Part shown: piece by piece, positions 862 to 45,267 of the stretch
Position numbering within the stretch: the stretch's first letter is position 1
Layout of the letters: each line of letters starts with the position of its first letter
Sequence record: MT833283.1
From: Escherichia coli phage vB_EcoS_Ace
Strand: one strand, 5' to 3'
DNA: 64,000 bases
Made by a program: the position numbers and the translations under genes
The notes under the pieces: model-generated
What the model was told of the DNA's origin: nothing
The model's database searches: none
The model's input: only the letters and a program-made list of their open reading frames with translations

Positions 862-1254
862 TTAGTTAGTGAGGCCATACGCTAGCGCGTCACCGATAAA
901 GGAAAGATCTTCACCATGTACGCTAGAACGGATACCCGCGCAAGTATAAACCATTGCGCTAGCTTCGGGATTGCAGACCGGACACGGCTTAACAACTGCA
1001 AACGCTAGACCTGATTTAAGCGCATCAATAATGATTGTTTGCACTGTCAAAGTATCAGCGTAAACGCCTTTTGCTTTCGTATGGCTTGCCACTTTGCCGG
1101 TATCATAAGCAAAGGTAGTAACCTGCAAAGCGTCGTTATAATTCAGCAAATCGAAATTAACTTGCCCCGCTTCGACGTGATAACGTTCGCCATTAGAGTA
1201 AACTAGAACGATGGAAGAAGTAGCGCGATCAAAAGGAATGTTTTGGTTTTTCAT
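862..1254 (-). CDS. hypothetical pre-early protein (130 aa)
   Basis: ORF in track; same strand and tight spacing with dmp/A1; no recognisable motif. Confidence 0.5.
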   Translation of the reverse strand: MKNQNIPFDRATSSIVLVYSNGERYHVEAGQVNFDLLNYNDALQVTTFAYDTGKVASHTKAKGVYADTLTVQTIIIDALKSGLAFAVVKPCPVCNPEASAMVYTCAGIRSSVHGEDLSFIGDALAYGLTN

Positions 1255-1290
1255 GTTTATGACTCCAGATTGTTTAATTACGGGATTAAT

Positions 1291-1569
1291 TTATTTATTG
1301 ACTTCTAAACTTACAACAAAGTTTAAATTTGTTTCTTTCCACACATCGGGAATATCTTGTTCCTGCAAATAATCCCTCGCTTCATAATCAGTTTCAAAGG
1401 AATAAAAATCCCCTGATTCAATTATATAAGAATGACCATTTATCGGATTTTGATAAATATAACAGTCACCATCTTTTATATTACGGTATACAGTGCCATG
1501 CCCGATATTATCAATGGCATATGTATCAGACATATTTTTACTAGATGGAAGATTAATTTTAATCGTCAT
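1291..1569 (-). CDS. hypothetical pre-early protein (92 aa)
   Basis: ORF in track directly downstream of A1 on the same strand. Confidence 0.5.
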   Translation of the reverse strand: MTIKINLPSSKNMSDTYAIDNIGHGTVYRNIKDGDCYIYQNPINGHSYIIESGDFYSFETDYEARDYLQEQDIPDVWKETNLNFVVSLEVNK

Positions 1570-1621
1570 TTAATTATCCTTTTATTAATGGCGGCATATT
1601 TCAACCGCCGATTAAATTTAA

Positions 1622-3286
1622 TTATGCAAAGAATTTACCGTTTTTGAAATCAATCAAAGTACGTTGCCCGTTTGCATAGGTAATTAAATGCGTTTGCGTC
1701 CAGCTTGACGCGCCCACGTTGTAGCCCATATCAAGGGAACCAGCAACGCCAGCGGTATAAACGCCGCCGTAAATGCTAGCCGTGTGAGTGTGACCAGTGT
1801 TAAGGCGTCCCAACTTTTTAAACTGCTTAGGATTGCCCCGACTGCCGTTAATGCCATTGTGACCATGTACGCCGCACTCAATGCCAGCGATTTTAAATGA
1901 CTGGTCAGTAGTCAGGAAAATGGCGTTAAATACACATCCTGCAACGTAGCGGAGGGCGTAATCCAATACGTTAAAGGTATCATTCTGTTTTGCAATTGCA
2001 GAGTAAATCGCAGCGTTTAAGCTGTGGTATAGTTCGGCGTTTGCGGGGTCGTCTTTAATGTTAGCGTTACGATCATCTAGCCAGCGTGAAAGAGCTAAAT
2101 CATGGTTAGATTCAACAATGATTGTTTGAGAGAAATCACGCTCCATTGATTCTAAAACGCGTCCAGTATCGATAAGATCATCTAAAACCTTGTCACGTCC
2201 TGCGGCGTACTGTTTAGCAAGGAATACACCACTTGCGCGGTTATGATGATTGCGGGATGTAAAATCGTGTACGTCATGGATAAACTGATATTTCGGTTTA
2301 AGAATATCAAGCAATGAATTTTCACTAGCCCATGACGCAATGGCGCATTCATCATCTAATTTTTCGGCGTGAATATCGCCATATTGCAGACCTAAAACAT
2401 GATCAGATGTTTCAAAACATCCGGTAGGCATAGCGCAAATATTCAAATCGTAGAACATCCCGCTTTCGTCCATTGTTTCAAGCTGGCGAACAAAAAATTC
2501 GCCGTCGTCGTCAAATTCTACTAATAAAGCGCCGTAATTATGCAGCGCCTCAGCTTTTTGACCTGCTTTCTGCTGAATATAGTTTTTAAGTGTAGCCGTT
2601 CCGGTGGAGTACATACGGCGTACTACTTCACCTTTTAACGCTGGCACACTTTCAGCGGTGATTTTAGCGTGACCAATTGCCAGACCTTCGATATTTAAAG
2701 CGGTGGCGGTTTCTGCGAATCCTGAAAGCGGATAATCAGCCGTTGGCAAAACGTTAATTTCAGCCATGAAAGCAAAGCGGCGGTTATTTAAAAATACGTT
2801 TTTATCACAAACATATTTATCAAATGCGGGATCGTATTTAATACCGTTTGCACCTTCCCCGTTCTGGAATCCATTTTTATTATAAATGAATTTACTGATT
2901 AGCAATTCAGCGCCGATATATTCAGCGAATTTTTCCAGACTTGCTAAAAAGTTTTTATGCGGGAAAGTATTATTTTGAACCGACGTTAGAATAAAACGGC
3001 GACCGGATTTAACTTCCCATTGTTCAACGGTACTAGAAACAATCCCCGCCGCTTCGGGGCGATCATCATTTTTAATCGCCTTTTCAGCTTTTGCCGCTTT
3101 CGGTTTCGCTGGCTTATTTGCTTCCAACCAGTCACAAATTGCGGTCGAATGTTTCGGCGTATCATAAACAGCTTTTGAAATATCGTCGCAAACTTCCAAT
3201 TTAGTAGCGCGTAAACGCTTACCGTAGAAGTTAAAATCTGCGGCCATTTTCAAAATTTGAGCTTGTTTTTCTGCGGAAATATTCAT
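1622..3286 (-). CDS. A1: A1-like pre-early protein with C-terminal calcineurin-like metallophosphoesterase (Mre11/SbcD-type nuclease) domain
   Basis: 554-aa ORF; motifs GDIHAE, VESNHD, GHNGINGSRGN, GHTHT in the order expected for metallophosphoesterases; size matches T5 A1 as recalled. Confidence 0.7.
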   Translation of the reverse strand: MNISAEKQAQILKMAADFNFYGKRLRATKLEVCDDISKAVYDTPKHSTAICDWLEANKPAKPKAAKAEKAIKNDDRPEAAGIVSSTVEQWEVKSGRRFILTSVQNNTFPHKNFLASLEKFAEYIGAELLISKFIYNKNGFQNGEGANGIKYDPAFDKYVCDKNVFLNNRRFAFMAEINVLPTADYPLSGFAETATALNIEGLAIGHAKITAESVPALKGEVVRRMYSTGTATLKNYIQQKAGQKAEALHNYGALLVEFDDDGEFFVRQLETMDESGMFYDLNICAMPTGCFETSDHVLGLQYGDIHAEKLDDECAIASWASENSLLDILKPKYQFIHDVHDFTSRNHHNRASGVFLAKQYAAGRDKVLDDLIDTGRVLESMERDFSQTIIVESNHDLALSRWLDDRNANIKDDPANAELYHSLNAAIYSAIAKQNDTFNVLDYALRYVAGCVFNAIFLTTDQSFKIAGIECGVHGHNGINGSRGNPKQFKKLGRLNTGHTHTASIYGGVYTAGVAGSLDMGYNVGASSWTQTHLITYANGQRTLIDFKNGKFFA

Positions 3287-5073: not shown

Positions 5074-5770
5074 CCTAATTTTTAAAGAGCATGGCAGGGT
5101 TTTGAAAGGTCAAACAGACTGTCAATCGCTGTTATCCCCGCCGTGTAGTTCGTCATTGCCGCCCTACGTGATAAATAATAGGAGAATACCGAGAAGGGCG
5201 CAAGCGTATTTTTGTAAAGAAACGTAAAGAAAACCACTACTCGCAAACTTCCAGCGGCGCATTAAATTTAATGAAACGGGCGCGCGAATAACACCAAAAC
5301 AACCATTTTAGCAAGTAATTTTTTCATTTATATCTGCTCTAGGGTACTTGACAAAATCTAAAATCCTCGTGGTGAGGTTTTCTCGGTGTACCCCTTATGA
5401 TTGCCTATCTTTTCCTTTGAGGCGCTTAGAATGCGTTACAGAGCGTTTTAGACCCTGTTAATAACTTATACAAAAAGCAAAAATGAAATTTAATGAGTTA
5501 TCCACTTGATTTTTCAAAAAAGTATTTTCTGCTGTTATTTTTCATTGACAAATAAGTCTGGACGTGCATCAGAGCATTAGCAGACTAATAATCGCTAGGA
5601 TGATAATCACGCTGGTGGATTGTAACAGCCGAAACAGTTAGTAGACTATTAATACTCTAAAAATCTATTAGCCAACTAACTATTTCATAATATATAATAT
5701 ACACATAAATTAATGAGAAATAATAACTATGAGAAACTATCGGGCTAAGTGAGAACCACTATCATTTAGG

Positions 5771-5840
5771 TTATGCACAAAGCTATCCACAGCACAAAAT
5801 AACTTGACGCAATAGGCGACGTTTTGGCGACTTATCCACA
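5771..5840. promoter_or_regulatory. cluster of DnaA-box-like 9-mers (TTATGCACA, CTATCCACA, TTATCCACA)
   Basis: three matches to TTATNCACA within 70 bp; further copies at 9460-9468 and 9521-9529. Confidence 0.5.
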
Positions 5841-5880
5841 GACTTATATACAGGTTATCCTACTGTATAAATATACAGGG
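5831..5880. repeat. left arm of ~50-bp inverted repeat carrying DnaA box TTATCCACA and LexA-box-like palindrome CTGT-N8-ACAG
   Basis: about 45/50 identity to reverse complement of 9421-9470. Confidence 0.7.
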
Positions 5881-6127
5881 TAGAATGGTAGCAGTAACAA
5901 CCGCAATCAAATTTAAGCGGCCTAGAACGCGCTACACGGCGTTTTCTCACTGCTACCCTTATTATAATAAAGCCTTGTGTACGCTTACAGAGAGCTAGAA
6001 ATAGAAAACGCGCGATTATCATAAAAATGGGCAGTAGGCAAGGAATAAAAAACCTTTTCTTTTTTCTTGCCCCTAGCGAACAATTATCTATATCATTCAC
6101 TCACCGATTAACGAGGGAGACAAAGAA

Positions 6128-7786: not shown

Positions 7787-8014
7787 ATGGTATATTCATC
7801 ATCTTCTGCAATTTTTAACGGTATGGAATGGGTATCCGTTCCCGCTATTGTCAGCGTTATGGTTTCTGAATTTGGGATTGGTAAAACTTATGTTACCATT
7901 CAGGGGCTTTACGACAATGACAAGATTGATCAGCAAACCGCCGGATTTTTGCTGGATGAATTGAAAGCTAACCATTGCACTAAAAAGCAAGCGGCAAAAA
8001 TTGTTTTAATGTAA
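7787..8014 (+). CDS. hypothetical protein (75 aa)
   Basis: ORF in track; AGGAGG upstream of ATG. Confidence 0.5.
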   Translation: MVYSSSSAIFNGMEWVSVPAIVSVMVSEFGIGKTYVTIQGLYDNDKIDQQTAGFLLDELKANHCTKKQAAKIVLM

Positions 8015-8212
8015 TTATTAAAGGGGATATATTATCCCCTAATTTCTAGGAGCTAATAAAATGGTTATTTTTCGATCTATTCTGGCTAGTATCTTGGGCG
8101 CTATTTTATCGCTGTTTGTAATAGCTTTCGGCGTTCACGTGGTTATTATTGGAGCAGGTATCGCGGGGTTTTCTTACTTGTTAGGCTGTATGACTGGTAA
8201 AGGGGAATAAAA

Positions 8213-8425
8213 ATGTTAAAAAATGTAAGCCTTGCCCGTTCAAAAGGTTTTAAGCTGGTGGATGTTAACACGTTTGAGCGTACAGATTGTAAAATCGAAT
8301 ATGTACCGCGTAACAAAAACGCTTTCCGTGTTACAGAAAAGAAATTTGACAAGCGCGGAAATTTGGTAGCCGAAACGGTTAAACACTTTGCCACCTTTTA
8401 CGCTGCGTTTCGGGGAGTGTTATAA
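8213..8425 (+). CDS. hypothetical protein (70 aa)
   Basis: ORF in track; stop 1 nt before next ATG. Confidence 0.5.
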   Translation: MLKNVSLARSKGFKLVDVNTFERTDCKIEYVPRNKNAFRVTEKKFDKRGNLVAETVKHFATFYAAFRGVL

Positions 8426-8426
8426 A

Positions 8427-8771
8427 ATGGTAATTTACGAGGGCAATCGCTTTGTAACTAATTGCCGTCCGGCATTATTAGCAAACTATTTAAATCAGCT
8501 TTCACCAGTTTATAAAGGCGTGGTTAATATCTATGAGGGCAAAGCACATTATAAAATTTCTGCCGTTGTCGCCCGTGAACTAGCGTTTCAATTTTTAACT
8601 TTTGGGTCTTGTGACGTTCAGGTTATGGGGGAAGCGTTAATAGCGGAAAATGAAAATGAATTTATTGACATTTTCCGCAAAGTATGTACAGAGCGCCTGA
8701 TTATGAAAGGCGCGTATATTCAATCAACCGCTGAAAGTATCGAAACAGCGTTTCGAAAGGTGGCGCAATGA
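8427..8771 (+). CDS. hypothetical protein (114 aa)
   Basis: in-frame ATG at 8427 immediately after upstream stop; track ORF 8388..8771 trimmed to this ATG. Confidence 0.5.
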   Translation: MVIYEGNRFVTNCRPALLANYLNQLSPVYKGVVNIYEGKAHYKISAVVARELAFQFLTFGSCDVQVMGEALIAENENEFIDIFRKVCTERLIMKGAYIQSTAESIETAFRKVAQ

Positions 8772-28079: not shown

Positions 28080-28155
28080 AACTATAATTTGGTACTCCGA
28101 CTTGGGATCGAACCAAGATTTGACGATTATCGGTCGCCTGTTCTAACCTGTTGAA
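28080..28155 (-). tRNA. tRNA-Ile (GAU)
   Basis: cloverleaf by hand; anticodon loop CCGATAA; T-loop TTCGATC; CCA encoded. Confidence 0.65.
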
Positions 28156-28166
28156 CTATCAGAGCA

Positions 28167-30007: not shown

Positions 30008-30097
30008 TGGCAGAAGATAATGGAGTCGAACCATCACCATATCACTACAGCGGGCCGGTTTTCAAGACCGGTTACGTACCACTACGTCCTATCTTCT
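30008..30097 (-). tRNA. tRNA-Ser (UGA), class II
   Basis: long variable arm; anticodon arm CCGGT-CTTGAAA-ACCGG; acceptor AGAAGAT/ATCTTCT. Confidence 0.6.
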
Positions 30098-30452
30098 ATT
30101 GTTCGTATATTACAAAGTTTACAGATTCAGAGTAATAACCATTACTAGAACCATGCCATTTAACGGTTACACAGCCTTTAGCTGTGGCAAACTTATACCA
30201 TGTATGGGTTACTGAATCCCAATCTTCTGTAGCGTGTGTGATTACTTCCTCTGCTTCTATGATTGGATAACCTAAAAGGTCATGTAAATCACCAATAATA
30301 TCATCTATATGAACATCTTCACAGCAGTCCTGCTCATGATAAAACTTATAGTTCTTACCATCAGTACAAATGAAGATAAGAGTATCCTGGTCTTGGCATA
30401 CACTAGTAAAAATTTTGCCAAGCATTTCATTATAGATTGTCACTTCTGACAT
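30096..30452 (-). CDS. hypothetical protein (118 aa)
   Basis: ORF in track. Confidence 0.45.
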   Translation of the reverse strand: MSEVTIYNEMLGKIFTSVCQDQDTLIFICTDGKNYKFYHEQDCCEDVHIDDIIGDLHDLLGYPIIEAEEVITHATEDWDSVTHTWYKFATAKGCVTVKWHGSSNGYYSESVNFVIYEQ

Positions 30453-30474: not shown

Positions 30475-30566
30475 TGGCGGAAGAAGAGAGATTCGAACTC
30501 TCAAGCCTGCTTTCACAAGTCAGCCACTTTCCAAGCGGTTTTCGTCACCTATCGATTTGCTCTTCC
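30475..30566 (-). tRNA. class II tRNA, probably tRNA-Ser (GGA)
   Basis: acceptor and T-arm clear; anticodon arm assignment (loop TTGGAAA) tentative; atypical D-arm. Confidence 0.4.
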
Positions 30567-30745
30567 GTAGATCTCAGGATTAAATCATAAACTTCATTAG
30601 CGGATACTGGAAGTATGAGATTATACATCTTTTGGTCATACCTCTGACCATACTCTATAAACACATACTCTTTAGTTAATGTATTAACAGCTAACCAGAT
30701 ATCAGTTATAGGAGTTATAGGAGTTTTCATCATGAGTTGATCCAA
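30545..30745 (-). CDS. hypothetical protein (66 aa)
   Basis: ORF in track. Confidence 0.4.
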   Translation of the reverse strand: MDQLMMKTPITPITDIWLAVNTLTKEYVFIEYGQRYDQKMYNLILPVSANEVYDLILRSTEEQIDR

Positions 30746-31270: not shown

Positions 31271-31512
31271 AGATATTCCTTCTAGTTTACTAAGGCTATT
31301 AGCTCGGTGTGCGTATTACCCTCAGACATTAGCCAGTAGAGTATAACCGCTCTTCACAAACCCGATACACTATTCAGTTGCCACTGAATCTAGTGGACTA
31401 ATCTAGAACTTCTCCCAAGTCGTAGGGATCGTGCTTTTGGCAGCCAGCCCTAGGTCGAGCTAATACCTTAGTGAACTTTGATGAGGATTTCTCCTCATCA
31501 ATTTATATAAAT

Positions 31513-31541
31513 ATTATAACAAGAAATTAAGCATCAAGCAA
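31513..31541 (-). promoter_or_regulatory. sigma70 promoter (TATAAT / TTGCTT)
   Basis: minus strand; 17-bp spacer; overlaps 3' end of ORF 31534..31893. Confidence 0.55.
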
Positions 31542-31893
31542 GTACATTTTTAGCAATTTCTTGTAGTTCCTTAACGTCGCTAACGAAAAGGTAATCAGAG
31601 CTTCCAGAGTGCATACTCTGCATAACCACACCATCCTCTGGTGCATCTTCCTTCAAAGTAAGTCCTAACCAGAACTCGGCAAAACTAGGTGTTACCTCAC
31701 CTTGACTTGCCTTGAACACATCACCTTCTGTGATCTCTTGACCAGTAGAGAGTCCCATGTATGGTACGTTCAGATCAATATCTTTGTAGAATTCAGCTAG
31801 ATCTTGTTCGAAGTCCCAACCTTTAGAGATAGCGAACTCCATTGTTACATGACCGAAATAGCCTTGAACCTTGCTTGATAATTGCATTTGCAA
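31534..31893 (-). CDS. hypothetical protein (119 aa)
   Basis: ORF in track. Confidence 0.5.
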   Translation of the reverse strand: MQMQLSSKVQGYFGHVTMEFAISKGWDFEQDLAEFYKDIDLNVPYMGLSTGQEITEGDVFKASQGEVTPSFAEFWLGLTLKEDAPEDGVVMQSMHSGSSDYLFVSDVKELQEIAKNVLA

Positions 31894-31911
31894 TTCCTTA
31901 TTTTGAGTTAA

Positions 31912-31985
31912 TTGGTACTCGGTGATAGAATCGAACTATCGCAACCGCCGTGTAAAGACGGGGTTCTACCATTAAACTAACCGAG
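31912..31985 (-). tRNA. tRNA-Val (UAC)
   Basis: cloverleaf by hand; anticodon loop TTTACAC. Confidence 0.6.
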
Positions 31986-31989
31986 CAAT

Positions 31990-32067
31990 TTGGTGGATTG
32001 CCTGGGATTCGAACCCAGAACTGACGGATTAAAGGTCCGCTACTCTTATCCAGTTGAGCTAGCAATC
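31990..32067 (-). tRNA. tRNA-Lys (UUU)
   Basis: anticodon loop CCTTTAA (C at position 33). Confidence 0.55.
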
Positions 32068-32700
32068 CAATTTTTCTACTAATAATTTAAAAGCATCTAG
32101 TACAGGTACTTCAAACCACTCTCCAGATACTCTATAATCTTTAAGAAGATTATGTAATTCTTTCTCTGTACGTCTTTTATCCGACGAAAATCTGAAATGG
32201 TATAGCTTGTAGTCTCTATTAGGTGAATAAGTTTGATAACTTGCTAACCTCTCATTCACATCTATAGTCATACCTATTTTATACATGCCTGGCCATGCTG
32301 GATTACCAATTACATATATAAAACCTTCCGTTATAGGTATTTTATGCTCCCTTTTATACTTTAAGAGATTTAAGGCTGCCATTCGATAACAGAATCTAAA
32401 CTCTGAAGTTTTTAACTTACCTTCTTTACCCGAAATTTCGTTATATTTGCTCATATAAGCTCTTATGAGCTTATCATCTATAATGAAGTTATCAGGAAGG
32501 TTTAAGGCAGCTAAAACTTTATTAATTAGCATAGACTTCCTTAATAGAGTATCCTTAATAGAGTAGACTTTCAAGTAAGGATGATTGATTCCTAATTCCG
32601 CCATCACTTCGTTTTTATCTTTACCGTAATGGGCTAGTGGATACTTCTTACGATCTTTGCTAGATCGTAGATCACTTACCTTTAAACGAAATAATTTCAT
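32059..32700 (-). CDS. T5orf172-domain protein (GIY-YIG-like), putative homing endonuclease
   Basis: GFIYVIGN...YKIGMT motif; paralog of ORF 35847..36377; embedded in tRNA cluster. Confidence 0.6.
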   Translation of the reverse strand: MKLFRLKVSDLRSSKDRKKYPLAHYGKDKNEVMAELGINHPYLKVYSIKDTLLRKSMLINKVLAALNLPDNFIIDDKLIRAYMSKYNEISGKEGKLKTSEFRFCYRMAALNLLKYKREHKIPITEGFIYVIGNPAWPGMYKIGMTIDVNERLASYQTYSPNRDYKLYHFRFSSDKRRTEKELHNLLKDYRVSGEWFEVPVLDAFKLLVEKLDC

Positions 32701-32721
32701 TTCGAAATCCTTCTATTAAAT

Positions 32722-32799
32722 TGGAAGCGGGTGTAGGAATCGAACCTACCTCTTTCTAGCTTATGAGACTAGCGATCTCTACCAAAGATCTAACCCGCA
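32722..32799 (-). tRNA. tRNA-Met (CAU), possibly initiator-like
   Basis: anticodon loop CTCATAA; U1-U72 mismatch at top of acceptor stem. Confidence 0.55.
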
Positions 32800-32805
32800 A
32801 TTGTT

Positions 32806-32882
32806 TGGTCTCCAATGAAGGACTCGAACCTTCAACCCCACCGCCCCAAACGGTGTACTCTAGCCAATTGAGCTAATCGGAG
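32806..32882 (-). tRNA. tRNA-Pro (UGG)
   Basis: anticodon arm CACCG-TTTGGGG-CGGTG. Confidence 0.6.
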
Positions 32883-32891
32883 AATATTATT

Positions 32892-33089
32892 TTATTGTGG
32901 TGGAATATTAATATTCCGTCCATCTATGCAGTAAATGGTACTAGGAATTGTAGAGTGTATACTGAAGTTTTGTATTTTACTCTCTCCACCACAGAAATTT
33001 TTTGCAAATTCATACTCCTTGTTAATGGTTGAATCAAATTTAAAGCAACCAGTGAGTAAGAATACAGATAGTAACATAACTTTTTTCAT
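32892..33089 (-). CDS. small lipoprotein (65 aa)
   Basis: signal peptide with lipobox LTGC. Confidence 0.45.
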   Translation of the reverse strand: MKKVMLLSVFLLTGCFKFDSTINKEYEFAKNFCGGESKIQNFSIHSTIPSTIYCIDGRNINIPPQ

Positions 33090-33121
33090 TTTGCTTTCCT
33101 TCTCAACACTTTATAAGATAT

Positions 33122-33150
33122 ATTATACAGAGAATTAAGCAAAATAGCAA
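33122..33150 (-). promoter_or_regulatory. sigma70 promoter (TATAAT / TTGCTA)
   Basis: minus strand; 17-bp spacer. Confidence 0.6.
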
Positions 33151-33408
33151 ATGAATTTTTAATAAATTTACTTATTGCGTAGGCCACCTGGAGGGTTCAA
33201 GCCCCACGTCTGACAAAGAAGTTTGCGAGACTTCTCTTAAACGCCAGAATAGACCCGCCGATCTATCGGAACCTACTCAATAAGTAAACTTTCGTTTACC
33301 TACACCTACCTGGTCGGGAGGATTTTCAGCTACTAGAACCGGCCGGAAACTCATCGCCTTGTTTACCTTGTAGTCCCACTATAAGTGACGCGACCTACAA
33401 AGATTTTG

Positions 33409-33479
33409 TGCGGTCGGAGGGAATCGAACCCTCAACTTCTGGTTGGCAACCAAAAATTATACCTTTTAACTACGAACGC
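33409..33479 (-). tRNA. tRNA-Gly (GCC)
   Basis: anticodon arm TTTGG-TTGCCAA-CCAGA; one acceptor mismatch; CCA not encoded. Confidence 0.5.
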
Positions 33480-33692
33480 ATAATGAGTCAATCTAGGTAG
33501 GACTTGAACCTACTATCACTTGTGCGGATTTACGAGAACCATTCTTTCACTCGAATCGAACGAGCTTCTACCCTCGGCAAGCTGGTGTCCCCTCTCCACC
33601 ACGCTAGAATGATAATTAATGCCTGCTCCTTTGAATCAAGAAGTCCACCCCGGACTTTGGGTCTTTGCAGTACATCACGCTGCTCTGATGTT

Positions 33693-33769
33693 TGGTACAC
33701 CCACTAGGACTTGAACCTAGAACCTACCGCTTAAGAGGCGGTAGCTCTAACCAATTGAGCTATGGATGT
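33693..33769 (-). tRNA. tRNA-Lys (CUU)
   Basis: anticodon arm ACCGC-CTCTTAA-GCGGT. Confidence 0.6.
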
Positions 33770-33775
33770 ATAATT

Positions 33776-33850
33776 TGGCGGTACTAAGGGTAATCGAAAC
33801 CCTACCTCTCCCGTGACAGGGGAGTATCCTAACCGTTAGACTATAGTACC
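33776..33850 (-). tRNA. tRNA-Asp (GUC)
   Basis: anticodon arm CTCCC-CTGTCAC-GGGAG. Confidence 0.65.
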
Positions 33851-34371
33851 TTTAACTTTTTAAGTTCTTTAGGATTGCCTCCTAAAGAAGTGTATCTTTT
33901 ACGCAACCCATTATCTGAATAACTTAACTTTCTCCCTGCACCTGACCAGCCTAGCTCTCTTACTGTAACCTCGATTATTTCTTTAGTTATAGAGATATCT
34001 TTTGGTTTATGTGAAGAGCACTCCTGACATTTTTCAGCTTTTAAAGAAATAGCTTTACCACAATCCTTACAACAATTATCATGGTTTAGTTTACTAAATC
34101 CTTTATCTTTTAAAGTCTTTTCTAGATGCTGCTCTTTTGTGAGCACTTGTAAGTTATTAAGACCCCAATAAGTAATGTCTGTGTTAATATGGTCAACTTC
34201 TAGTTCAGAGTCTAGACTTGGTAATTTCTTAAATGCACATGCTAAAATCCTATGTACACCAGTATTTCTCTGTTGACCATTTTTATGGAGACGTATAGAT
34301 AAGTATCCGTAATTACTGGTTATTGGGGTTAGTATTTTGTTTGATTTGATACTAAATACTAACCCATCCAA
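33841..34371 (-). CDS. HNH homing endonuclease (176 aa)
   Basis: HNH motif (VHRILACAF...EVDHIN...N...H); within tRNA cluster, as for T5 F-Tfl endonucleases as recalled. Confidence 0.65.
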   Translation of the reverse strand: MDGLVFSIKSNKILTPITSNYGYLSIRLHKNGQQRNTGVHRILACAFKKLPSLDSELEVDHINTDITYWGLNNLQVLTKEQHLEKTLKDKGFSKLNHDNCCKDCGKAISLKAEKCQECSSHKPKDISITKEIIEVTVRELGWSGAGRKLSYSDNGLRKRYTSLGGNPKELKKLKVL

Positions 34372-34425
34372 ACTTACTAAGTACTTCTCAAACCCTGGAA
34401 TGGGTAAGGATATTCAGTGCATAAT

Positions 34426-34611
34426 TTACTCAGTTTTGAGTTTTTCGATAGCTTCCTCAACCTCTTTTAGAGCTTCACGACGCTCTACTTGACCTTGAAG
34501 TTCTTCAAGAAGTTCAGCTTTCAGAGCCTTAATAATATTACCACGAACCTTAATATTATTAATCAGATTATCACGATCAGCTTCTAGTCGAGCAATTGCA
34601 CGAGTTGTCAT
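34426..34611 (-). CDS. coiled-coil protein (61 aa)
   Basis: ORF in track. Confidence 0.35.
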   Translation of the reverse strand: MTTRAIARLEADRDNLINNIKVRGNIIKALKAELLEELQGQVERREALKEVEEAIEKLKTE

Positions 34612-34714
34612 ATCTATTTCCTCAGTTGTTAATGAAAAATGGTATCTGTGACTGAATTCGATATCAGCAATGATAGCTGGTTGGCTACCGGTTTACTTAA
34701 CTCTACACAGAATA

Positions 34715-34797
34715 TGGCGGGCCGTGTAGGATTCGAACCTACGTTGTCTTTCGACATGGATTAACAGTCCACCGCCAAACCGCTTGGCTAACGACCC
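34715..34797 (-). tRNA. class II-like tRNA with anticodon GUU (Asn)
   Basis: 3-bp D-stem and 13-nt variable hairpin (Tyr-like scaffold) but anticodon loop CTGTTAA and discriminator G. Confidence 0.45.
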
Positions 34798-34804
34798 TAA
34801 AATT

Positions 34805-34880
34805 TGGACGACCGCATGAGATTCGAACTCACATAAGGAGGTTTTGCAGGCCTCCGCCTAAGCCATTCAGCCAACGGTCG
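34805..34880 (-). tRNA. tRNA-Cys (GCA)
   Basis: anticodon loop CTGCAAA. Confidence 0.55.
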
Positions 34881-35058
34881 ATTTATCTTGCTTTTCGAGA
34901 TTAGTAAACTCTAGATCTATAGAATGTCCTATAGATCTAGCATAATAGCCATCTCCAGCATCATAGCCTGACTTACCACACTCACACATCTTAAACTCTC
35001 TATAACGAGTGAAAATATGTTCAGAACCACAACACTTAAATTTAACTAACATTTTCAT
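34867..35058 (-). CDS. Cys-containing small protein (63 aa)
   Basis: ORF in track; CC...CEC motif. Confidence 0.4.
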   Translation of the reverse strand: MKMLVKFKCCGSEHIFTRYREFKMCECGKSGYDAGDGYYARSIGHSIDLEFTNLEKQDKSTVG

Positions 35059-35297
35059 TTAACACGCTCCGGTAAATCTTCGAGTTTATATTGAGTAGCC
35101 ACATTAGCAGCATCTAGTAACAAACCCATATGTTTAAGAATCCTAGTGATAGCCTCGCCTTCTGCTTCTTCTACAAAAGTGCGTAGTTGAATGAAGTCAA
35201 TACCACCATCCATACCAGAGAAAATGTTAAGTAAGCGAAGCATTACCAGCTTACGTTCTTTCAGTTCTTGTTCTATCATGTTGCTTCTCCAGTTCAA
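35055..35297 (-). CDS. hypothetical protein (80 aa)
   Basis: ORF in track; promoter cassette upstream. Confidence 0.5.
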   Translation of the reverse strand: MNWRSNMIEQELKERKLVMLRLLNIFSGMDGGIDFIQLRTFVEEAEGEAITRILKHMGLLLDAANVATQYKLEDLPERVK

Positions 35298-35308
35298 TTT
35301 ATGTAATA

Positions 35309-35337
35309 ATTATACAGAACTTTAAGGATTTAAGCAA
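35309..35337 (-). promoter_or_regulatory. sigma70 promoter (TATAAT / TTGCTT)
   Basis: minus strand; 17-bp spacer. Confidence 0.6.
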
Positions 35338-35668
35338 CTACATTTTTCAGAAATTTGATGCCTTTCTTACACTTCTTATACCACCACGTCTTAGAGTTTT
35401 GTCGATTATGAACGCTTGAGATCTTCGCCTCATTAAAGTGCTTCAAAAGCATATAATCAGCCCCTAATTGCTCAAGTGGAATGTGATCTCCACTAGAATC
35501 ATAAACATAAGGCCGTTGATTAGCTCTGTAGTGATATACCTTATTAATCCGGCGTTTAAGCAAAGGACTAGTACAGTATATAAAGAAGTTTTTAGGATGC
35601 ATCAGCATCTCCTTCAAAATTGGTGCACCCCGTTGGTAACGATCCAACCTCTCAAGCTCTTCAGGCAA
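35330..35668 (-). CDS. hypothetical protein (112 aa)
   Basis: ORF in track. Confidence 0.45.
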   Translation of the reverse strand: MPEELERLDRYQRGAPILKEMLMHPKNFFIYCTSPLLKRRINKVYHYRANQRPYVYDSSGDHIPLEQLGADYMLLKHFNEAKISSVHNRQNSKTWWYKKCKKGIKFLKNVVA

Positions 35669-35786
35669 GCGCTAATCCATCTCAGCTAAAGGTGCAAATA
35701 TTGGCAAACCTACTAGGACTCGAACCTAGACCGTACGGTTTTGGAGACCGACATGCTGTCCAGTAACACTCTAGGAATGCAGAAAT

Positions 35787-35861
35787 TGGTATTCTCACAC
35801 GGATTCGAACCGAGATTTCTGGAGTGAAGTTCCAGTGACCTAACCATTAGTCGATGAGAAC
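35787..35861 (-). tRNA. tRNA-Glu (UUC)
   Basis: anticodon arm CTGGA-ACTTCAC-TCCAG; one T-stem mismatch. Confidence 0.5.
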
Positions 35862-36377
35862 ATTATATTCTTTTGCTTTCTCTAATTTTAGAAAAGACTT
35901 TAATTCTTCTAAGTTAATTATATTAAACCATTCACCTTCTAGTGCAAAAGGTTTAAGAAACTTATGTATTTTTGATTCTACCGCACGTCTATCGGAGTAG
36001 AATTGATAGTGCTCCAGAGTAAAATCTCTGTAAGGACTATATGTTTGATATGACCTCAGTCTTTCATGGACATTTACTGTCATACCTATTTTGTAACAAT
36101 TAGGCCATGCTTTATTGCCAATAACATATACCATACCTTCATACACAGGTAATTTATGCGCTTGTTTATACTGAATAAGATTTAAAGCAGAAATTCTATC
36201 ATACTGCATTATTCTTTTAGTATTCTTCTTTTCAGTACAAGTACCTTTTATCTCATTATAGATTTCTCGATATTTAGCAAGTAAATCTACATCAATAACA
36301 AAAGGTATAGTAGGAGAGATAATATCTCTTTCCTCCATAGCGCTAATTACTATTTTTGGTATATCTGGTATTGCCAT
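35847..36377 (-). CDS. T5orf172-domain protein (GIY-YIG-like), putative homing endonuclease
   Basis: EGMVYVIGN...YKIGMT...GEWF motifs; paralog of 32059..32700. Confidence 0.6.
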   Translation of the reverse strand: MAIPDIPKIVISAMEERDIISPTIPFVIDVDLLAKYREIYNEIKGTCTEKKNTKRIMQYDRISALNLIQYKQAHKLPVYEGMVYVIGNKAWPNCYKIGMTVNVHERLRSYQTYSPYRDFTLEHYQFYSDRRAVESKIHKFLKPFALEGEWFNIINLEELKSFLKLEKAKEYNVLID

Positions 36378-36398
36378 TTTTAGACCTTAGTTAAATTT

Positions 36399-36486
36399 GG
36401 TGGGCGTTAATGGAGTCGAACCACTCGAGTCGCAATGACCAGGGATTTACAATCCCCTCCGCTACCACTTACGGAATAAACGCCCA
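36399..36486 (-). tRNA. tRNA-Tyr (GUA), class II
   Basis: long variable arm; anticodon arm GGGGA-TTGTAAA-TCCCT; A73. Confidence 0.6.
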
Positions 36487-36616
36487 TATTTAGAAGTATT
36501 CAAAAAATTCTCATTTAAACACTTTTAAATATGTTTCCAAATTAGATAACTATTATATCAAGTTTTATGGCACTGAGCAAGTCAGATTTTAAAGAACTTG
36601 CTCAGTGCTGTATTAG

Positions 36617-36892
36617 TTAGTCGAACTTAGGAGTGACAGTTAAGGAGAACGGAAGTTCAAAAACTTCTTCACCCTCATCACTAACAGTGATTACCCGACC
36701 CTCTAACTTATTCATGCTAATCTCAACATCAGCCGTAGCATCTGGAGCCATGCCAGCTTCAACACATTTAGCTTTAATTTCCGGCAGAAGTTCTACATCA
36801 TAGAAATAAAGCCATTCAATCTCACCTTCCCAGCCTTCCCAGGATTTACAGATTGCACTTTCAATACCAGTTGTTATAACACGATTTTGCAT
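36617..36892 (-). CDS. hypothetical protein (91 aa)
   Basis: ORF in track; promoter cassette upstream. Confidence 0.5.
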   Translation of the reverse strand: MQNRVITTGIESAICKSWEGWEGEIEWLYFYDVELLPEIKAKCVEAGMAPDATADVEISMNKLEGRVITVSDEGEEVFELPFSLTVTPKFD

Positions 36893-36922
36893 TCGTTAAC
36901 TCCTTCATCAATTTATATAACT

Positions 36923-36952
36923 ATTATAACAGAAATCTTAAGTAAAAAGCAA
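36923..36952 (-). promoter_or_regulatory. sigma70 promoter (TATAAT / TTGCTT, 18-bp spacer)
   Basis: minus strand. Confidence 0.55.
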
Positions 36953-36982
36953 GTACATTTTTAAAATTTCTGCTTGGAGGAG

Positions 36983-37255
36983 TTAAACTCCTGATTCTTC
37001 AGCCAGATCAAGCCCAACCAACGTGATTGCCATAATAGCCGCGCCATGTTCCTTCTCTCCTAGCTCTTTAGCTTGAGTGAGAATATTGAGGAATTGCTTT
37101 TGAAAATCTGTAACTTCTTCTGTCATGCCTGCTTCAGCAATAATTCCTTTCAGCATAAAGCGTTGTGCCGTAATTTCAGGATTAGCCATTTGTTTTCTCC
37201 AGTTATTTAGAATGTAAGCCAAACTTAGGATCATAGCGATCATAAGTCGTACCAT
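36983..37255 (-). CDS. hypothetical protein (90 aa)
   Basis: ORF in track. Confidence 0.45.
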   Translation of the reverse strand: MVRLMIAMILSLAYILNNWRKQMANPEITAQRFMLKGIIAEAGMTEEVTDFQKQFLNILTQAKELGEKEHGAAIMAITLVGLDLAEESGV

Positions 37256-37341
37256 TAGTTGAAGCCTTGATGCTATGAAAACGACAGTACATAAATTTAC
37301 GTAGTGCTTTATTAATAGCTTTCATTTTATTTCCTTTTATT

Positions 37342-37418
37342 TGGTAGGGGTGGTGGGATTCGAACCCACAAAACCTGAATTTTAAGTCCAGTACCTATGC
37401 CAATTCGATTACACCCCC
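37342..37418 (-). tRNA. tRNA-Leu (UAA)-like with class I architecture
   Basis: anticodon arm CTGGA-CTTAAAA-TTCAG; A73; only 4-nt variable loop; D-arm atypical. Confidence 0.4.
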
Positions 37419-37426
37419 ATGTAATC

Positions 37427-37768
37427 TTAGCGAATCTCTAAACCCTGGAAATATCGAGGGAATGGAGAGCCAACTTCAAAATTAATACCCCAATTAAGTT
37501 CAACGAGTTCAGATTTATTAAGATCCAGACCATTACCTTCAAAGATATAGCCGTAAACCGCAGGGAACATAGCTGCTAGATCTTCCATATCGGAATGAGC
37601 ATTGTGTTCTTCACGAAACTGCTCAAACTCTTCAAAGAACTTTTCTAGGAAGAACTCTGGTACAATGAACGTTACTACATCTGTGGTATCATCAATACGA
37701 TAGATGGTAGCTTGGAATAGACCTACACCTAAAAGGTTGACTGCCGGAGTTGTAAAAATATCCATTTT
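37427..37768 (-). CDS. acidic hypothetical protein
   Basis: track ORF 37427..37876 trimmed to internal Met that overlaps the upstream stop. Confidence 0.4.
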   Translation of the reverse strand, partial: KMDIFTTPAVNLLGVGLFQATIYRIDDTTDVVTFIVPEFFLEKFFEEFEQFREEHNAHSDMEDLAAMFPAVYGYIFEGNGLDLNKSELVELNWGINFEVGSPFPRYFQGLEIR

Positions 37769-43966: not shown

Positions 43967-44467
43967 TTAAGTTTTCTTAACCACAGGCTTGTAGAACGTA
44001 TGGCCTTGAATCTTCGTTGTTTTCTTAAACTTCTTTGTCCAGTACGGTTTATCTTTACCACTATGGAAGTATAACGCTCCATGTGTTGGATCTTGTGGTA
44101 AATCAACGTAGTATATCACTCTAGCTAAATTCTTAGCAACTTGCCAAGCCTCATCGGTTTTATCAACTTTTGGTCTCTTGGCCACCCAAGAGAACTGGTT
44201 AGACTGATATACTACTTTACAGTAAGAATCAGGAAAAGTACCAGAGTTAACACGATTTTTAGTAACCTGTGCAACTGCGATCATTCCTTTAGTGCCCTCA
44301 CCACGACTCTCAAAATAGATGTTTTTTGCAATACAGTCTATCTCTTTAGCATCATGTGTGGCATAAGCAGGTAAGCTACTTATAGTAGTGGCCAGCAGGA
44401 GTAATACTTTCAACATAGTATCACTCCTTATACGGCTGGTATAGGGCAAATTCACCGAATAGGTCAA
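43967..44467 (-). CDS. SleB/CwlJ-like cell-wall hydrolase with signal peptide
   Basis: blocks NIYFESRGE, AVAQVTKNRV, SYCKVVYQ..QFSW. Confidence 0.55.
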   Translation of the reverse strand: MTYSVNLPYTSRIRSDTMLKVLLLLATTISSLPAYATHDAKEIDCIAKNIYFESRGEGTKGMIAVAQVTKNRVNSGTFPDSYCKVVYQSNQFSWVAKRPKVDKTDEAWQVAKNLARVIYYVDLPQDPTHGALYFHSGKDKPYWTKKFKKTTKIQGHTFYKPVVKKT

Positions 44468-44945
44468 ACCTTAAATCATTTGCTACATCTACCGCTTCTT
44501 TTAGACTAAGAAAGGTTCCGCCCTCTATAGGCTTTTTATCTTTCTTTACAATAACCCTCCACCCTTGAGGTGTTTTATACACATTTTTATAGCCAGAAGT
44601 ATTGGCCTTCCCAATATCTTTATTAGCATTATTTTGTGAATGAGTGGCGTCTCTGAGATTTTCTATTTTATCGCAGAAAGGATTAGTGTCATGCCTAGTC
44701 CTATCTTTATGATCAACTTGTACTGGTAAGTATCCTTTATGATATAAAAATACTAATCTATGGTGTCTGTATGATTTATTATCAATGGACACTACTATTG
44801 ATTTCCCATCTTTAGCCCCAGCAGGCTTATCCGCCCATTTGGCATTCCATGCAGGGGCTTTATTGGGATTAGCTTTCCAGTACAATCTACCTTCCTCACT
44901 ATTGTAGTGAAATAAGGATAATAGGTTTTCCTGGGTTATTTCCAT
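44421..44945 (-). CDS. HNH endonuclease with AP2-like DNA-binding domain
   Basis: HNH motif (HHRLV...VDHKDR...N...H) plus AP2-like C-terminus; 3' end overlaps SleB-like gene start. Confidence 0.6.
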   Translation of the reverse strand: MEITQENLLSLFHYNSEEGRLYWKANPNKAPAWNAKWADKPAGAKDGKSIVVSIDNKSYRHHRLVFLYHKGYLPVQVDHKDRTRHDTNPFCDKIENLRDATHSQNNANKDIGKANTSGYKNVYKTPQGWRVIVKKDKKPIEGGTFLSLKEAVDVANDLRFDLFGEFALYQPYKE

Positions 44946-44949: not shown

Positions 44950-45267
44950 TTACTCCTGCCAATCGTACTCAATACGATTGGGGTTTTCTTGATAACCAGC
45001 TGTTTTTAACTGTTGGCGCATATTTTCTGCAGCAACAGAATTGCTGGTGACTAAAACCACCTTTTTAGGGTACAAATCTTTATCTTCTAGGATACGACTT
45101 AACAAATGGTGGCCTTCTACTTTACTACCCATGTCATTATCTAAATAAAGATAATTACCCTGGAGTTGTAACTGATAGAGCATTTCGTACGCTACATCAG
45201 GGTTTCTGATGATGATATCCATTCCATTTAAGTCACGTACATCATCAAACAAAATATGTAAAGTCAT
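44950..45267 (-). CDS. hypothetical protein (105 aa)
   Basis: ORF in track; promoter cassette upstream. Confidence 0.5.
   Translation of the reverse strand: MTLHILFDDVRDLNGMDIIIRNPDVAYEMLYQLQLQGNYLYLDNDMGSKVEGHHLLSRILEDKDLYPKKVVLVTSNSVAAENMRQQLKTAGYQENPNRIEYDWQE

Follow-up and report, generated by a model that had tools for sequence, protein, structure and literature searches.

The tRNA gene cluster in the window analysed here (64,000 nucleotides of Escherichia coli phage vB_EcoS_Ace, MT833283.1; an Epseptimavirus-type, T5-like phage) has probably been shaped by intronless homing, in which freestanding endonuclease genes co-convert the tRNA alleles lying downstream of them. Each cluster endonuclease gene forms a compact unit with the entire adjoining downstream tRNA gene; the ORF lacks a stop codon of its own and ends at the conserved U8-A9-G10 of the tRNA or at bases 13-15. 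During co-infection by two related phages, the putative endonuclease would cut or nick the endonuclease-free genome at a target in or beside the cognate tRNA gene. Repair off the donor genome would then copy in the endonuclease gene together with the divergent tRNA allele of the donor, which is presumably cleavage-resistant. Such joint copying would make the inter-tRNA spacers hot spots that are invaded by successive different endonuclease genes. With their stop codons placed within the tRNAs, the endonuclease messages would lose them if RNase P cut a shared transcript, which probably limits endonuclease expression. The arrangement has already been documented in T4 and T5, and the window offers a clear example of it, not a novel type of system.

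Endonuclease genes and their boundaries

The window holds 29 tRNA genes, all of them on the (-) strand according to ARAGORN. For tRNA-Lys, tRNA-Asp and tRNA-Glu, Rfam places the 5' ends at 32068, 33850 and 35861, respectively, in base-for-base agreement with ARAGORN. Three endonuclease genes are interspersed with the tRNA genes, namely a pair of T5orf172-family paralogs and a single gene of the NUMOD4/HNH type, and a fourth gene, of the HNH type, lies 8 kb from the cluster on the 5' side of a hydrolase gene (Table 1). The first-pass annotation had already placed two T5orf172 paralogs and one HNH gene between tRNA genes, and this is borne out by Pfam, ARAGORN and Rfam. A promoter scan of the window performed no better than chance (36 sites against 41 expected); thus, co-transcription of the cluster is assumed.

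Table 1. Features of the endonuclease loci, with coordinates in the window.
Feature	Coordinates	Strand	Basis
tRNA-Lys(UUU), allele K1	31991..32068	(-)	ARAGORN; Rfam 59.9 bits
T5orf172-1, freestanding GIY-YIG-like (T5orf172/MUG113) endonuclease gene, 157 aa	32059..32532	(-)	Pfam; phrog_5032
14-nt tandem duplication, TACTCTATTAAGGA x2	32538..32565	(-)	Alignment with seven relatives
tRNA-Asp(GUC), allele A	33776..33850	(-)	ARAGORN; Rfam 63.1 bits
NUMOD4 + HNH (I-HmuI-like) endonuclease gene	33841..34422	(-)	Alignment with relatives
tRNA-Glu(UUC), allele 1, with C33	35787..35861	(-)	ARAGORN; Rfam 52.1 bits
T5orf172-2, intact paralog, 176 aa	35847..36377	(-)	Pfam; phrog_5032
tRNA-Tyr, allele a, bordering the Glu|Tyr hot spot on its upstream side	36398..36485	(-)	Allele comparison
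SleB-like cell-wall hydrolase, 149 aa	43967..44416	(-)	Start ATG 44416, from annotation in relatives
Freestanding HNH_3 endonuclease gene	44421..44945	(-)	Pfam E 1e-8; phrog_99 E 4.5e-49

The T5orf172 ORFs at 32059..32700 and 35847..36377 match Pfam MUG113/T5orf172 with E-values of 1e-11 to 2e-18, far exceeding the curated cut-offs, and are paralogs with 50% identity (E 4e-48). In both proteins the domain is C-terminal (residues ~70-165) and the N-terminal part comprises only ~70-95 residues. All eight diverse homologs compared share the same core residues, Y, K-x-G, R and E-W. The first of these ORFs, 213 aa long, had been taken as a single T5orf172 gene, which is incorrect: it is a fusion in which the 14-nt duplication, lacking in all seven aligned relatives (alignment columns 166-179), puts a separate upstream 54-aa gene in frame with T5orf172-1. 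The true gene (Pfam E 1.3e-18 and 5.4e-15) has its own SD and ATG and is annotated in relatives as a stand-alone CDS of 474 nt; it is intact in six of the seven, and the EPS7 copy is frameshifted.

The boundaries earlier given to the cluster HNH gene, 33841..34371, also have to be revised. In relatives the gene encodes 193 aa from a start corresponding to ATG 34422, but codon 3 in the window is TGA (34416..34414), and the earlier ORF is only the residual 176 aa from TTG 34371. A full-length relative matches Pfam NUMOD4 (24.2 bits), with HNH_3 under the cut-off, as well as phrog_59/959 and PDB 1U3E (E 2e-4). The latter is I-HmuI, an intron-encoded homing endonuclease of the HNH nicking type from Bacillus phage SPO1; its alignment with the full-length form of the window HNH spans residues 8-102 and takes in both the DNA-binding strands at the N-terminus and the HNH motif. 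The window gene differs from I-HmuI in being freestanding, in having a C-terminal CxxC...CxxC motif and, for the window copy, in the nonsense codon at position 3.

The hydrolase-side gene had been described as HNH-AP2 and as overlapping the SleB-like hydrolase gene by 47 nt. Its HNH assignment holds (Table 1), but a Pfam search detected no AP2 domain in the protein, and the overlap is a longest-ORF artefact. The real hydrolase start is preceded by AAGGAG, falls 4 nt past the HNH stop and yields the 149-aa protein annotated in relatives. The HNH_3 gene occupies the intergenic spacer on the upstream side of the hydrolase gene. The first ~23 hydrolase codons (signal peptide), adjacent to the HNH gene, are unlike those of HNH-less phages.

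Patchy occupancy and private tRNA alleles

Among 562 related phage records (440 matched for the hydrolase-side HNH query), empty or alternatively occupied sites exist for all four endonuclease genes, so the presence/absence comparison that the first-pass annotation had proposed is positive throughout. Its view of these genes as selfish elements is well supported by their patchy presence and by cassettes whose similarity between genomes mostly exceeds that of the flanks. Its proposal that tRNA genes are the targets gains support only indirectly, from the co-inheritance of private downstream tRNA alleles and from reciprocal chimeric tRNA-Asp genes. Every cluster endonuclease gene is linked to a divergent downstream tRNA allele of its own, and the cassette borders match the ORF plus the whole tRNA.

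The clearest case is T5orf172-2, which is found in eight of the 562 records at an identity of at least 99.6%; the same eight records are those carrying tRNA-Glu allele 1. Gene and allele form a 601-nt cassette (35790..36390, with borders set by comparison with Wa28) that is 99.8% identical between genomes, against 90.4% and 92.0% for its flanks. The other cassettes show 97.5-99.5% identity against 82-99% for flanks. The cassette is the more conserved in most pairings, IrmaTschudi being an exception, where one HNH flank (99.6%) exceeds the cassette (99.4%). The spacer between tRNA-Glu and tRNA-Tyr, the latter with three alleles, is only 7-8 nt at the empty sites of EPS7, KFSSM, T5_ev219 and IrmaTschudi, and is filled by other T5orf172 paralogs in Wa28, S114 and SE3.

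The T5orf172-1 query is at least 80% covered in 67 of the 562 records, and the gene is missing from vB_SenS-3, falkor and beppo. All eight examined genomes with T5orf172-1 have tRNA-Lys allele K1, which occurs in 86 phage records, whereas the four examined loci without an endonuclease have K2, K3 or K4 instead. The HNH gene is present in 55 of 562 records at the megablast level and absent from rokbiter, EPS7 and S114; HNH-carrying genomes have tRNA-Asp allele A, and HNH-less genomes have allele B. Full-length allele A occurs in 65 records against these 55, and two checked records with allele A beyond the HNH matches had an unannotated HNH gene. Two HNH-less phages carry non-foldable chimeric tRNA-Asp genes that are reciprocal to each other: in smaug the 5' half is B and the 3' half A, and in Kenya-K38 the 5' half is A and the 3' half B. 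The linkage is not absolute, given these counts and the allele A 5' half that occurs in Kenya-K38 in the absence of the HNH gene. For the hydrolase-side HNH gene, a 1,701-nt query is at least 80% covered in only 13 of 440 related records, and most matches span 529 nt less.

Stop codons inside tRNA genes

Both T5orf172 ORFs overlap the next tRNA gene at their 3' ends, as noted earlier, by 15 nt at tRNA-Glu and by 10 nt, not 9 nt, at tRNA-Lys. A third overlap, absent from the first-pass annotation, joins the HNH ORF to tRNA-Asp (10 nt). Bases 8-10 (TAG) of tRNA-Lys K1 and of tRNA-Asp allele A, and bases 13-15 (TAA) of tRNA-Glu allele 1, serve as the respective stop codons. A coupling of tRNA processing to the mRNA 3' end, as the first reading suggested, would follow logically from these positions. 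Mitochondrial tRNA punctuation offers a parallel, in which tRNA excision sets the 3' end of the coding RNA that lies upstream and the stop codon is completed by polyadenylation. In the window, excision would likewise define that end, but it would take off a complete stop codon, harming rather than finishing the message. The idea is not new: stop codon removal by tRNA processing was proposed in 2008 for T4 segB/tRNA-Arg and for T5 F-TflI, F-TflII as well as F-TflIV (PMC2330249).

It is possible, though somewhat doubtful, that the overlap is an adaptive regulatory device, which would be compatible with homing. RNase P would cut at the tRNA 5' end, 7-12 nt upstream of the stop codon, and the stop-less endonuclease message would be degraded or tmRNA-tagged; a potentially toxic nuclease would thereby be kept scarce, its synthesis tied to unprocessed precursor transcripts. 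Besides the stop positions and the earlier proposal, the recurrence of this geometry at many different tRNAs speaks for such a device. A member of the T5orf172 subfamily has a tRNA directly downstream of it in all 11 closest IMG/VR relatives and in five of seven sampled distant phages, Straboviridae included, with spacings of -37 to +5 nt; this placement also counts in favour of homing. Nevertheless, three non-endonuclease ORFs of the cluster also reach into tRNAs (DUF7695 into tRNA-Cys by 14 nt, a 66-aa ORF into tRNA-Ser by 22 nt and DUF7448 into tRNA-Ser by 2 nt), and the other junctions checked have gaps of 8-9 nt. Overlaps are thus not endonuclease-specific; since short gaps and overlaps are general in this compact cluster, an overlap by itself is no evidence for anything specific to endonucleases. 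Genome compaction suffices, and TAG at tRNA positions 8-10 provides a ready stop codon in one of three frames.

Known systems, a possible tRNA partnership and possible decay

The closest precedent is SegB, a freestanding GIY-YIG homing endonuclease of the T4 tRNA gene cluster, which cuts inside a tRNA gene of SegB-less phage so that the tRNA region is preferentially inherited (PMC2330249). As in the window, the gene lies within a phage tRNA cluster and is missing from related phages that have different tRNA genes there; its ORF runs as far as the 5' end of the following tRNA, and maturation of that tRNA separates the final codon from the stop codon. SegB belongs to the canonical GIY-YIG family, whereas the window proteins, known from sequence only, fall into Pfam T5orf172/MUG113 with a C-terminal domain, and their phage, unlike T4, is a siphovirus of Demerecviridae. 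Intronless homing with co-conversion was shown for SegB; for the window genes we infer it.

Within T5-like phages, the passages on F-TflI, F-TflII as well as F-TflIV (Akulenko et al. 2004) in PMC2330249 and PMC10644984 place these endonuclease genes, like those of the window, in the tRNA gene region and recognise them as the chief source of local genome differences. The former proposes that processing of the primary transcript down-regulates them, and the latter describes them as H-N-H enzymes; hence, going by these passages, they may have a counterpart only in the window HNH gene, the T5orf172 paralogs being of another family. T5orf172 and HNH homing endonuclease genes are enriched in T5-like phages and lie at recombination tract boundaries, and T5orf172 and AP2-associated HNH genes of ICP1 and other phages show domain shuffling (Barth et al. 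2023, PMC10448857). The nuclease domains of those genes are the same as in the window. The emphasis of that study is on DNA-binding domains of the zinc-finger type (CapR/DUF723) and on gene neighbourhoods close to those for terminase, ribonucleotide reductase and capsid, with no mention of tRNA gene association; in contrast, the window subfamily (phrog_5032), located directly 5' of tRNA genes, has no Pfam match to a CapR/DUF723-type domain.

That the endonucleases are kept for the benefit of the phage, as tRNA partners that spread or amplify variant tRNA genes escaping host tRNA-cleaving defences rather than as pure parasites, seems unlikely. A T5 tRNA-Lys(UUU) of the same locus neutralises PARIS (PMC11464382), SegB with tRNA-Tyr was recently shown to provide escape from tRNA cleavage by Septu, and SegB amplifies anti-defence tRNAs and is widely associated with tRNAs (PMC13096335). 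The endonuclease-linked tRNA-Lys K1 and tRNA-Glu have an unusual C at position 33, where endonuclease-free phage alleles have U, and the same anticodon arm recurs in the tRNA-Lys that Aeromonas phage phiAS4 carries beside a T5orf172 homolog, with compensatory changes in the other stems of that tRNA. However, C33 occurs in only three of ~11 independent endonuclease-adjacent tRNA lineages, the window lacks tandem amplification of tRNA genes, and the damage to two of its three cluster endonuclease genes, along with the EPS7 frameshift, resembles decay rather than selection.

The two lesions, the HNH nonsense codon and the duplication fusing T5orf172-1 to the upstream ORF, are private to the window and fit the usual cycle of invasion, fixation and decay, although they may instead be sequencing errors. 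Together with the EPS7 frameshift and the high mosaicism of many non-endonuclease segments of the region, they could suggest inactive relics or ordinary accessory genes made patchy by deletions and general recombination among co-infecting T5-like phages, but this is highly improbable given that most cassettes exceed their flanks in conservation, the same spacers hold different endonuclease paralogs, the genes are tightly linked to private tRNA alleles, distant homologs share an unvarying catalytic core and most relatives have intact ORFs. Under intronless homing, with two of the three cluster genes damaged, the capacity to home from the window genome may remain for T5orf172-2 only, with T5orf172-1 possibly still competent by way of its own start codon.

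tRNA alleles linked to the endonuclease genes

The main new point is that, as judged from aligned relatives, every endonuclease of the tRNA cluster is accompanied by its own allele of the downstream tRNA gene. In the cluster ARAGORN predicts 29 tRNA genes (28010 to 41856), every one on the minus strand; Rfam confirmed these and gave one more, weak match at 35624..35695. A megablast search of GenBank phage records with 31500..37500 matched 562 related records, nearly all of them T5-like phages of Salmonella, Escherichia and Klebsiella (Demerecviridae, Markadamsvirinae, mostly Epseptimavirus). Since the best coverage of this query by any record is at most 86%, the combination of inserts in the window has no match in the collection.

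Coordinates of the features discussed, with tRNA junctions and cassette borders (ORF plus whole downstream tRNA gene)
Feature	Coordinates	Strand	tRNA at 3' end	Overlap	Stop codon	Cassette borders
T5orf172-1	32059..32532	-	tRNA-Lys(UUU) allele K1, 31991..32068	10 nt	TAG, U8-A9-G10 of tRNA	about 31988..32551
HNH gene	33841..34422	-	tRNA-Asp allele A, 5' end 33850	10 nt	TAG, U8-A9-G10 of tRNA	33776..34423
T5orf172-2	35847..36377	-	tRNA-Glu(UUC) allele 1, 35787..35861	15 nt	TAA, tRNA positions 13-15	35790..36390
DUF7695/phrog_7042 ORF	34867..35058	-	tRNA-Cys	14 nt
phrog_11405 ORF	30545..30745	-	tRNA-Ser(GGA)	22 nt
DUF7448/phrog_2650 ORF	30096..30452	-	tRNA-Ser(UGA)	2 nt
14-nt tandem duplication	32538..32565
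tRNA-Ile(GAU)	28090..28165	-
tRNA-Phe(GAA)	35621..35695	-
112-aa ORF	35330..35668
tRNA-Tyr	36398..36485	-
SleB-like hydrolase	43967..44416	-
Hydrolase-side HNH	44421..44945	-
cREC_REC ORF	44950..45267	-

The comparison of presence and absence across relatives, which the first-pass annotation had proposed as a check, revealed empty or alternative sites for all four endonuclease genes. T5orf172-2 occurs in only eight related records, at an identity of at least 99.6%. The distance from tRNA-Glu to tRNA-Tyr is 7-8 nt in EPS7, KFSSM, T5_ev219 and IrmaTschudi, and this spacer is occupied by a different 163-aa gene in Wa28 and S114 and by an unannotated gene in SE3, all additional paralogs within this T5orf172 subfamily. 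The HNH gene upstream of tRNA-Asp was found in 55 records (43 of these at 99% identity or more) and is absent from rokbiter, EPS7 and S114. At least 80% of a T5orf172-1 query was covered in 67 records; vB_SenS-3 lacks the gene, so that a 54-aa gene directly adjoins tRNA-Lys, and falkor and beppo carry different ORFs beyond tRNA-Lys. Finally, a 1,701-nt query with the hydrolase-side HNH was at least 80% covered in 13 of 440 records, and most of the others matched it over a span 529 nt shorter, a clean empty site.

tRNA-Asp exists as two alleles whose common part is the 18-nt anticodon arm only: allele A in all HNH-carrying genomes examined, including EH1 and mar003J3 (in which the HNH gene is intact and unannotated), and allele B in the HNH-less genomes. 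Of the three tRNA-Glu alleles, allele 1 is found in exactly the same eight records as T5orf172-2. For tRNA-Lys(UUU) there are at least four alleles; K1 is present in eight of eight genomes with T5orf172-1, and K2, K3 or K4 in four loci without it. Against cassette-free or differently occupied genomes, homology breaks at the ends of the unit formed by the ORF and the whole downstream tRNA. By percentage identity, the cassettes are usually better conserved than both flanks: 99.8% versus 90.4% and 92.0% for T5orf172-2, 97.5-99.4% versus 82-99% for the HNH gene, and 98.9-99.5% versus 89-97% for T5orf172-1 in five of seven relatives. An exception is IrmaTschudi, in which one HNH flank (99.6%) lies slightly above the cassette (99.4%); KFSSM has a divergent T5orf172-1 allele (80%) between flanks of 94-96%.

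Two phages without the HNH gene carry reciprocal tRNA-Asp chimeras. In Salmonella phage smaug (901..977 of L017, the locus fetched from this phage) the 5' half comes from allele B and the 3' half from allele A, and in Kenya-K38 (~870..945 of its locus L026) it is the other way round. The halves meet within the common anticodon arm in both cases, and the acceptor stem cannot form; smaug and Kenya-K38 appear to have lost tRNA-Asp.

Endonuclease genes and their junctions

The presence of two T5orf172-type paralogs between the tRNA genes, as first annotated, was upheld. The ORFs (32059..32700 and 35847..36377) score well over the curated cut-offs of the Pfam families MUG113 and T5orf172 (PF13455, 67.8 and 59.2 bits, cut-off 22.3; PF10544, 56.2 and 43.7 bits, cut-off 20), both proteins belong to phrog_5032, and their mutual identity is 50% (E = 4e-48). 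The core motifs are EGF[IV]Y-VI, YKIGMT, ERL and E...GEW. Residues G81, Y84, K96, G98, R106, E134, E149 and W150 are invariant among eight diverse homologs, and the core residues would correspond by analogy to the GIY...YIG, Arg and catalytic Glu of GIY-YIG nucleases (PMC10448857). A PDB sequence search with T5orf172-2 returned no solved relative, and tblastn within the window found no further endonuclease paralogs.

The extent of the first paralog had to be revised. Alignment with seven relatives revealed a 14-nt tandem duplication (TACTCTATTAAGGA, twice) that is present in none of them and through which a separate gene of 54 aa is read in frame with the T5orf172 gene of 157 aa; 32059..32700 is a fusion peculiar to the window, and the true gene is the shorter one, which retains its own Shine-Dalgarno sequence and ATG. 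The HNH annotation was right in that an HNH-like gene lies upstream of tRNA-Asp, but the ORF 33841..34371, which has a weak HNH_3 match, is a remnant read from an internal TTG. The true start is at 34422, and the frame is not intact in the window: it reads ATG CAC TGA (34422..34414), with GGA as codon 3 in six of six relatives. The gene of the relatives encodes 193 aa (MHGISLPIPGFEEYLVSLDG...), and a full-length relative matches NUMOD4 (24.2 bits, cut-off 23.4), HNH_3 at 18.5-18.8 bits, under the cut-off of 24.8, phrog_59 (E = 6e-22) and I-HmuI (PDB 1U3E, E = 2e-4). Its sequence reads VDHIN...NNLQVLTKEQH.

The hydrolase-side HNH gene matches HNH_3 (35.1 bits, cut-off 24.8) and phrog_99 (E = 4.5e-49). 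The AP2 assignment reflects a resemblance by sequence reading, the C-terminal 60 aa having no Pfam match at E <= 1, and a PDB sequence search with the protein gave no match. The 47-nt overlap once assigned to this gene and the hydrolase is an artefact because the TTG at 44467 falls within the inserted HNH gene; the hydrolase starts at ATG 44416, which is preceded by AAGGAG and lies 4 nt past the HNH stop, and relatives with or without the HNH gene are annotated likewise. The next ORF on the upstream side of this HNH gene encodes a cREC_REC (cyclic-phosphate processing receiver) domain (E = 1.9e-12), and its homolog in Kenya-K38 (930..1751 of locus L014) is joined in frame to another HNH gene, giving a 273-aa HNH-receiver protein.

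ARAGORN and Rfam are concordant on the 5' ends of tRNA-Lys, tRNA-Asp and tRNA-Glu, and the overlaps of the three cluster endonucleases are therefore those listed in the table. Those of both T5orf172 ORFs had been recognized, and that of the HNH gene had not been mentioned. In all three endonuclease genes the stop codon falls among the first bases of a tRNA gene of the same orientation, the arrangement described for SegB. The idea that overlap is peculiar to endonucleases was rejected, as three non-endonuclease small ORFs of the cluster also terminate within tRNAs; such termination is a general habit of the cluster, and other ORF-tRNA junctions in it are gaps of 8-9 nt. Promoter-like sites in the cluster were no more frequent than by chance (36 found, 41 expected), and the predicted terminators, which fall within tRNAs, were uninformative as well.

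Probable homing with co-conversion, and known systems

The endonuclease genes display features of freestanding homing endonucleases, namely site polymorphism, conservation above the flanks or decoupling from them, and co-converted flanking markers. Next to the hydrolase-side HNH, the hydrolase gene opens with ~23 codons (signal-peptide codons) that are unlike those of HNH-less phages. From the comparison we infer that this divergence, the allele linkage and the tRNA-Asp chimeras represent co-conversion of flanking markers. At the sequence level, these are the signatures that intronless homing with co-conversion, and recombination with the tRNA gene at its centre, should leave. The earlier view of these genes as selfish elements is well supported. 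Observed directly in the sequences are the gene families, their overlaps with tRNAs, the polymorphic sites, the linked tRNA alleles, the chimeric tRNAs and, for most cassettes, an identity above that of the flanks. During co-infection, the proteins would cleave or nick a genome that lacks the cassette, in or beside the cognate tRNA gene, and repair would then copy the endonuclease gene along with the tRNA allele of the donor. The two lesions private to the window, together with a frameshifted T5orf172-1 in EPS7, are consistent with the decay that commonly follows fixation. The window lesions (the 14-nt duplication and the codon-3 TGA) may instead be sequencing errors; exact-pattern scans of IMG/VR for both found no match, a result of little weight since the wild-type control pattern gave one match only.

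As the stop codons belong to the tRNA sequences, cleavage of a common transcript by RNase P would strip the stop codon from the endonuclease message, which may restrain endonuclease expression. The closest known case to the window cassettes is SegB, a GIY-YIG endonuclease of the T4 tRNA cluster, which cleaves a tRNA gene of SegB-less phages and causes its region to be inherited preferentially (PMC2330249). Its authors proposed that tRNA-Arg maturation cuts between the last and the stop codon of segB (PMC2330249); according to a passage of the same paper, such processing had been proposed earlier for F-TflI/II/IV of the T5 tRNA cluster (PMC2330249). According to Barth et al. (2023; PMC10448857), T5-like phages are enriched in T5orf172 and AP2-associated HNH endonuclease genes, which mark the boundaries of recombination. 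tRNAs are not mentioned in that study, whereas the subfamily of the window lies 5' of tRNA genes. The kind of system is already known; the cassette-level linkage and the subfamily's fixed place 5' of tRNA genes are useful extensions.

The cluster would be a clean and well-sampled natural case of homing endonucleases turning over tRNA genes in T5-like phages, with tRNA-Lys, -Asp, -Glu and -Tyr alleles swapped as cassettes and dead chimeric tRNAs left by some exchanges. The T5 tRNA-Lys(UUU) of this locus neutralises PARIS (PMC11464382). More generally, two tRNA-cleaving defences, PARIS and the retron Eco7 toxin PtuAB, are countered by tRNAs of T5-like phages, and Septu restricts this phage family. 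Since tRNAs counter host defences, elements that shuffle tRNA alleles may help to set the host range of therapeutic or environmental phages.

Breadth of the tRNA association and C33

A tblastn search with T5orf172-2 found 447 places in 374 phage records. Seven distant homologs were sampled, and five of them are followed directly by a tRNA: Aeromonas phiAS4 (27-nt overlap, tRNA-Lys), Providencia PSTRCR_121 (3-nt overlap, tRNA-Asn), Vibrio VF16 (37-nt overlap, tRNA-Ser), Pectobacterium My1 (33-nt overlap, tRNA-Arg) and Klebsiella K7_rec26 (0-nt gap, tRNA-Pro). No tRNA lies near the homologs of Roseobacter phage CRP-2 and jumbo phage PBECO4. Of 80 loci sampled from IMG/VR, the 11 closest relatives each end -24 to +5 nt from a tRNA 5' end; the other 69 lack an adjacent tRNA, and only one of them has any tRNA within 1.5 kb. 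The association therefore belongs to the subfamily of the window. A tie of the T5orf172 domain at large to tRNAs was rejected on these 69 loci, CRP-2 and PBECO4.

Position 33 of the tRNA anticodon loop is a near-universal U. It is C in both T5orf172-linked tRNAs of the window, tRNA-Lys(UUU) and tRNA-Glu(UUC), and beside T5orf172 homologs in phiAS4 (tRNA-Lys, 1929..2004 of its locus L018) and PSTRCR_121 (tRNA-Asn, 1187..1261 of its locus L019); the phiAS4 tRNA-Lys has the anticodon arm of the window tRNA-Lys and compensatory changes in other stems. Among 132 distinct sequences, C33 occurs in 5 of 19 endonuclease-adjacent versus 2 of 113 other tRNAs (Fisher p = 6.5e-4, in a small sample with non-independent cases), and among the endonuclease-adjacent tRNAs of a larger IMG/VR set in K1 only. 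The C33 pattern is the basis of a speculative reading, which we regard as improbable, that the phrog_5032 subfamily is a tRNA-gene specialist moving as an endonuclease-tRNA module between the unrelated families Demerecviridae and Straboviridae, that the C33 often present in its tRNA is protective and that anti-defence tRNA variants are thereby spread. C33 could shield the linked allele from the endonuclease it accompanies, provided that the enzyme recognises conserved anticodon-loop DNA, and could also protect the tRNA against anticodon nucleases of the host; in either case, the selfish nuclease would be a vehicle spreading anti-defence tRNA variants. C33 is also found in tRNA-Ile(GAU) of the window.

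For annotation, longest-ORF calling makes false overlaps and conceals lesions, endonuclease genes are often unannotated, and variant tRNAs can be overlooked. ARAGORN missed a tRNA-Phe(GAA) with a weak Rfam score (33.4 bits) and an unusual T-loop, ATCGTTA instead of TTCGAAT, a variant shared with IrmaTschudi. The 112-aa ORF that runs into it is therefore over-extended, and the corresponding gene is annotated as 273 nt in relatives. Intact endonuclease ORFs unannotated in GenBank, comprising T5orf172 paralogs and the 193-aa HNH, are found in the loci fetched from T5_ev219 (L010, ~7940..8460) and SE3 (L006, ~5340..5890) and in two further loci (L015 and L016, 976..1550). Among close relatives (loci L001-L007 and L010), tRNA-Tyr occurs as three highly dissimilar alleles that differ in their variable arms; this tRNA is the reported target of Septu and the retron-Eco7 PtuAB toxin, and its allele turnover may bear on defence evasion.
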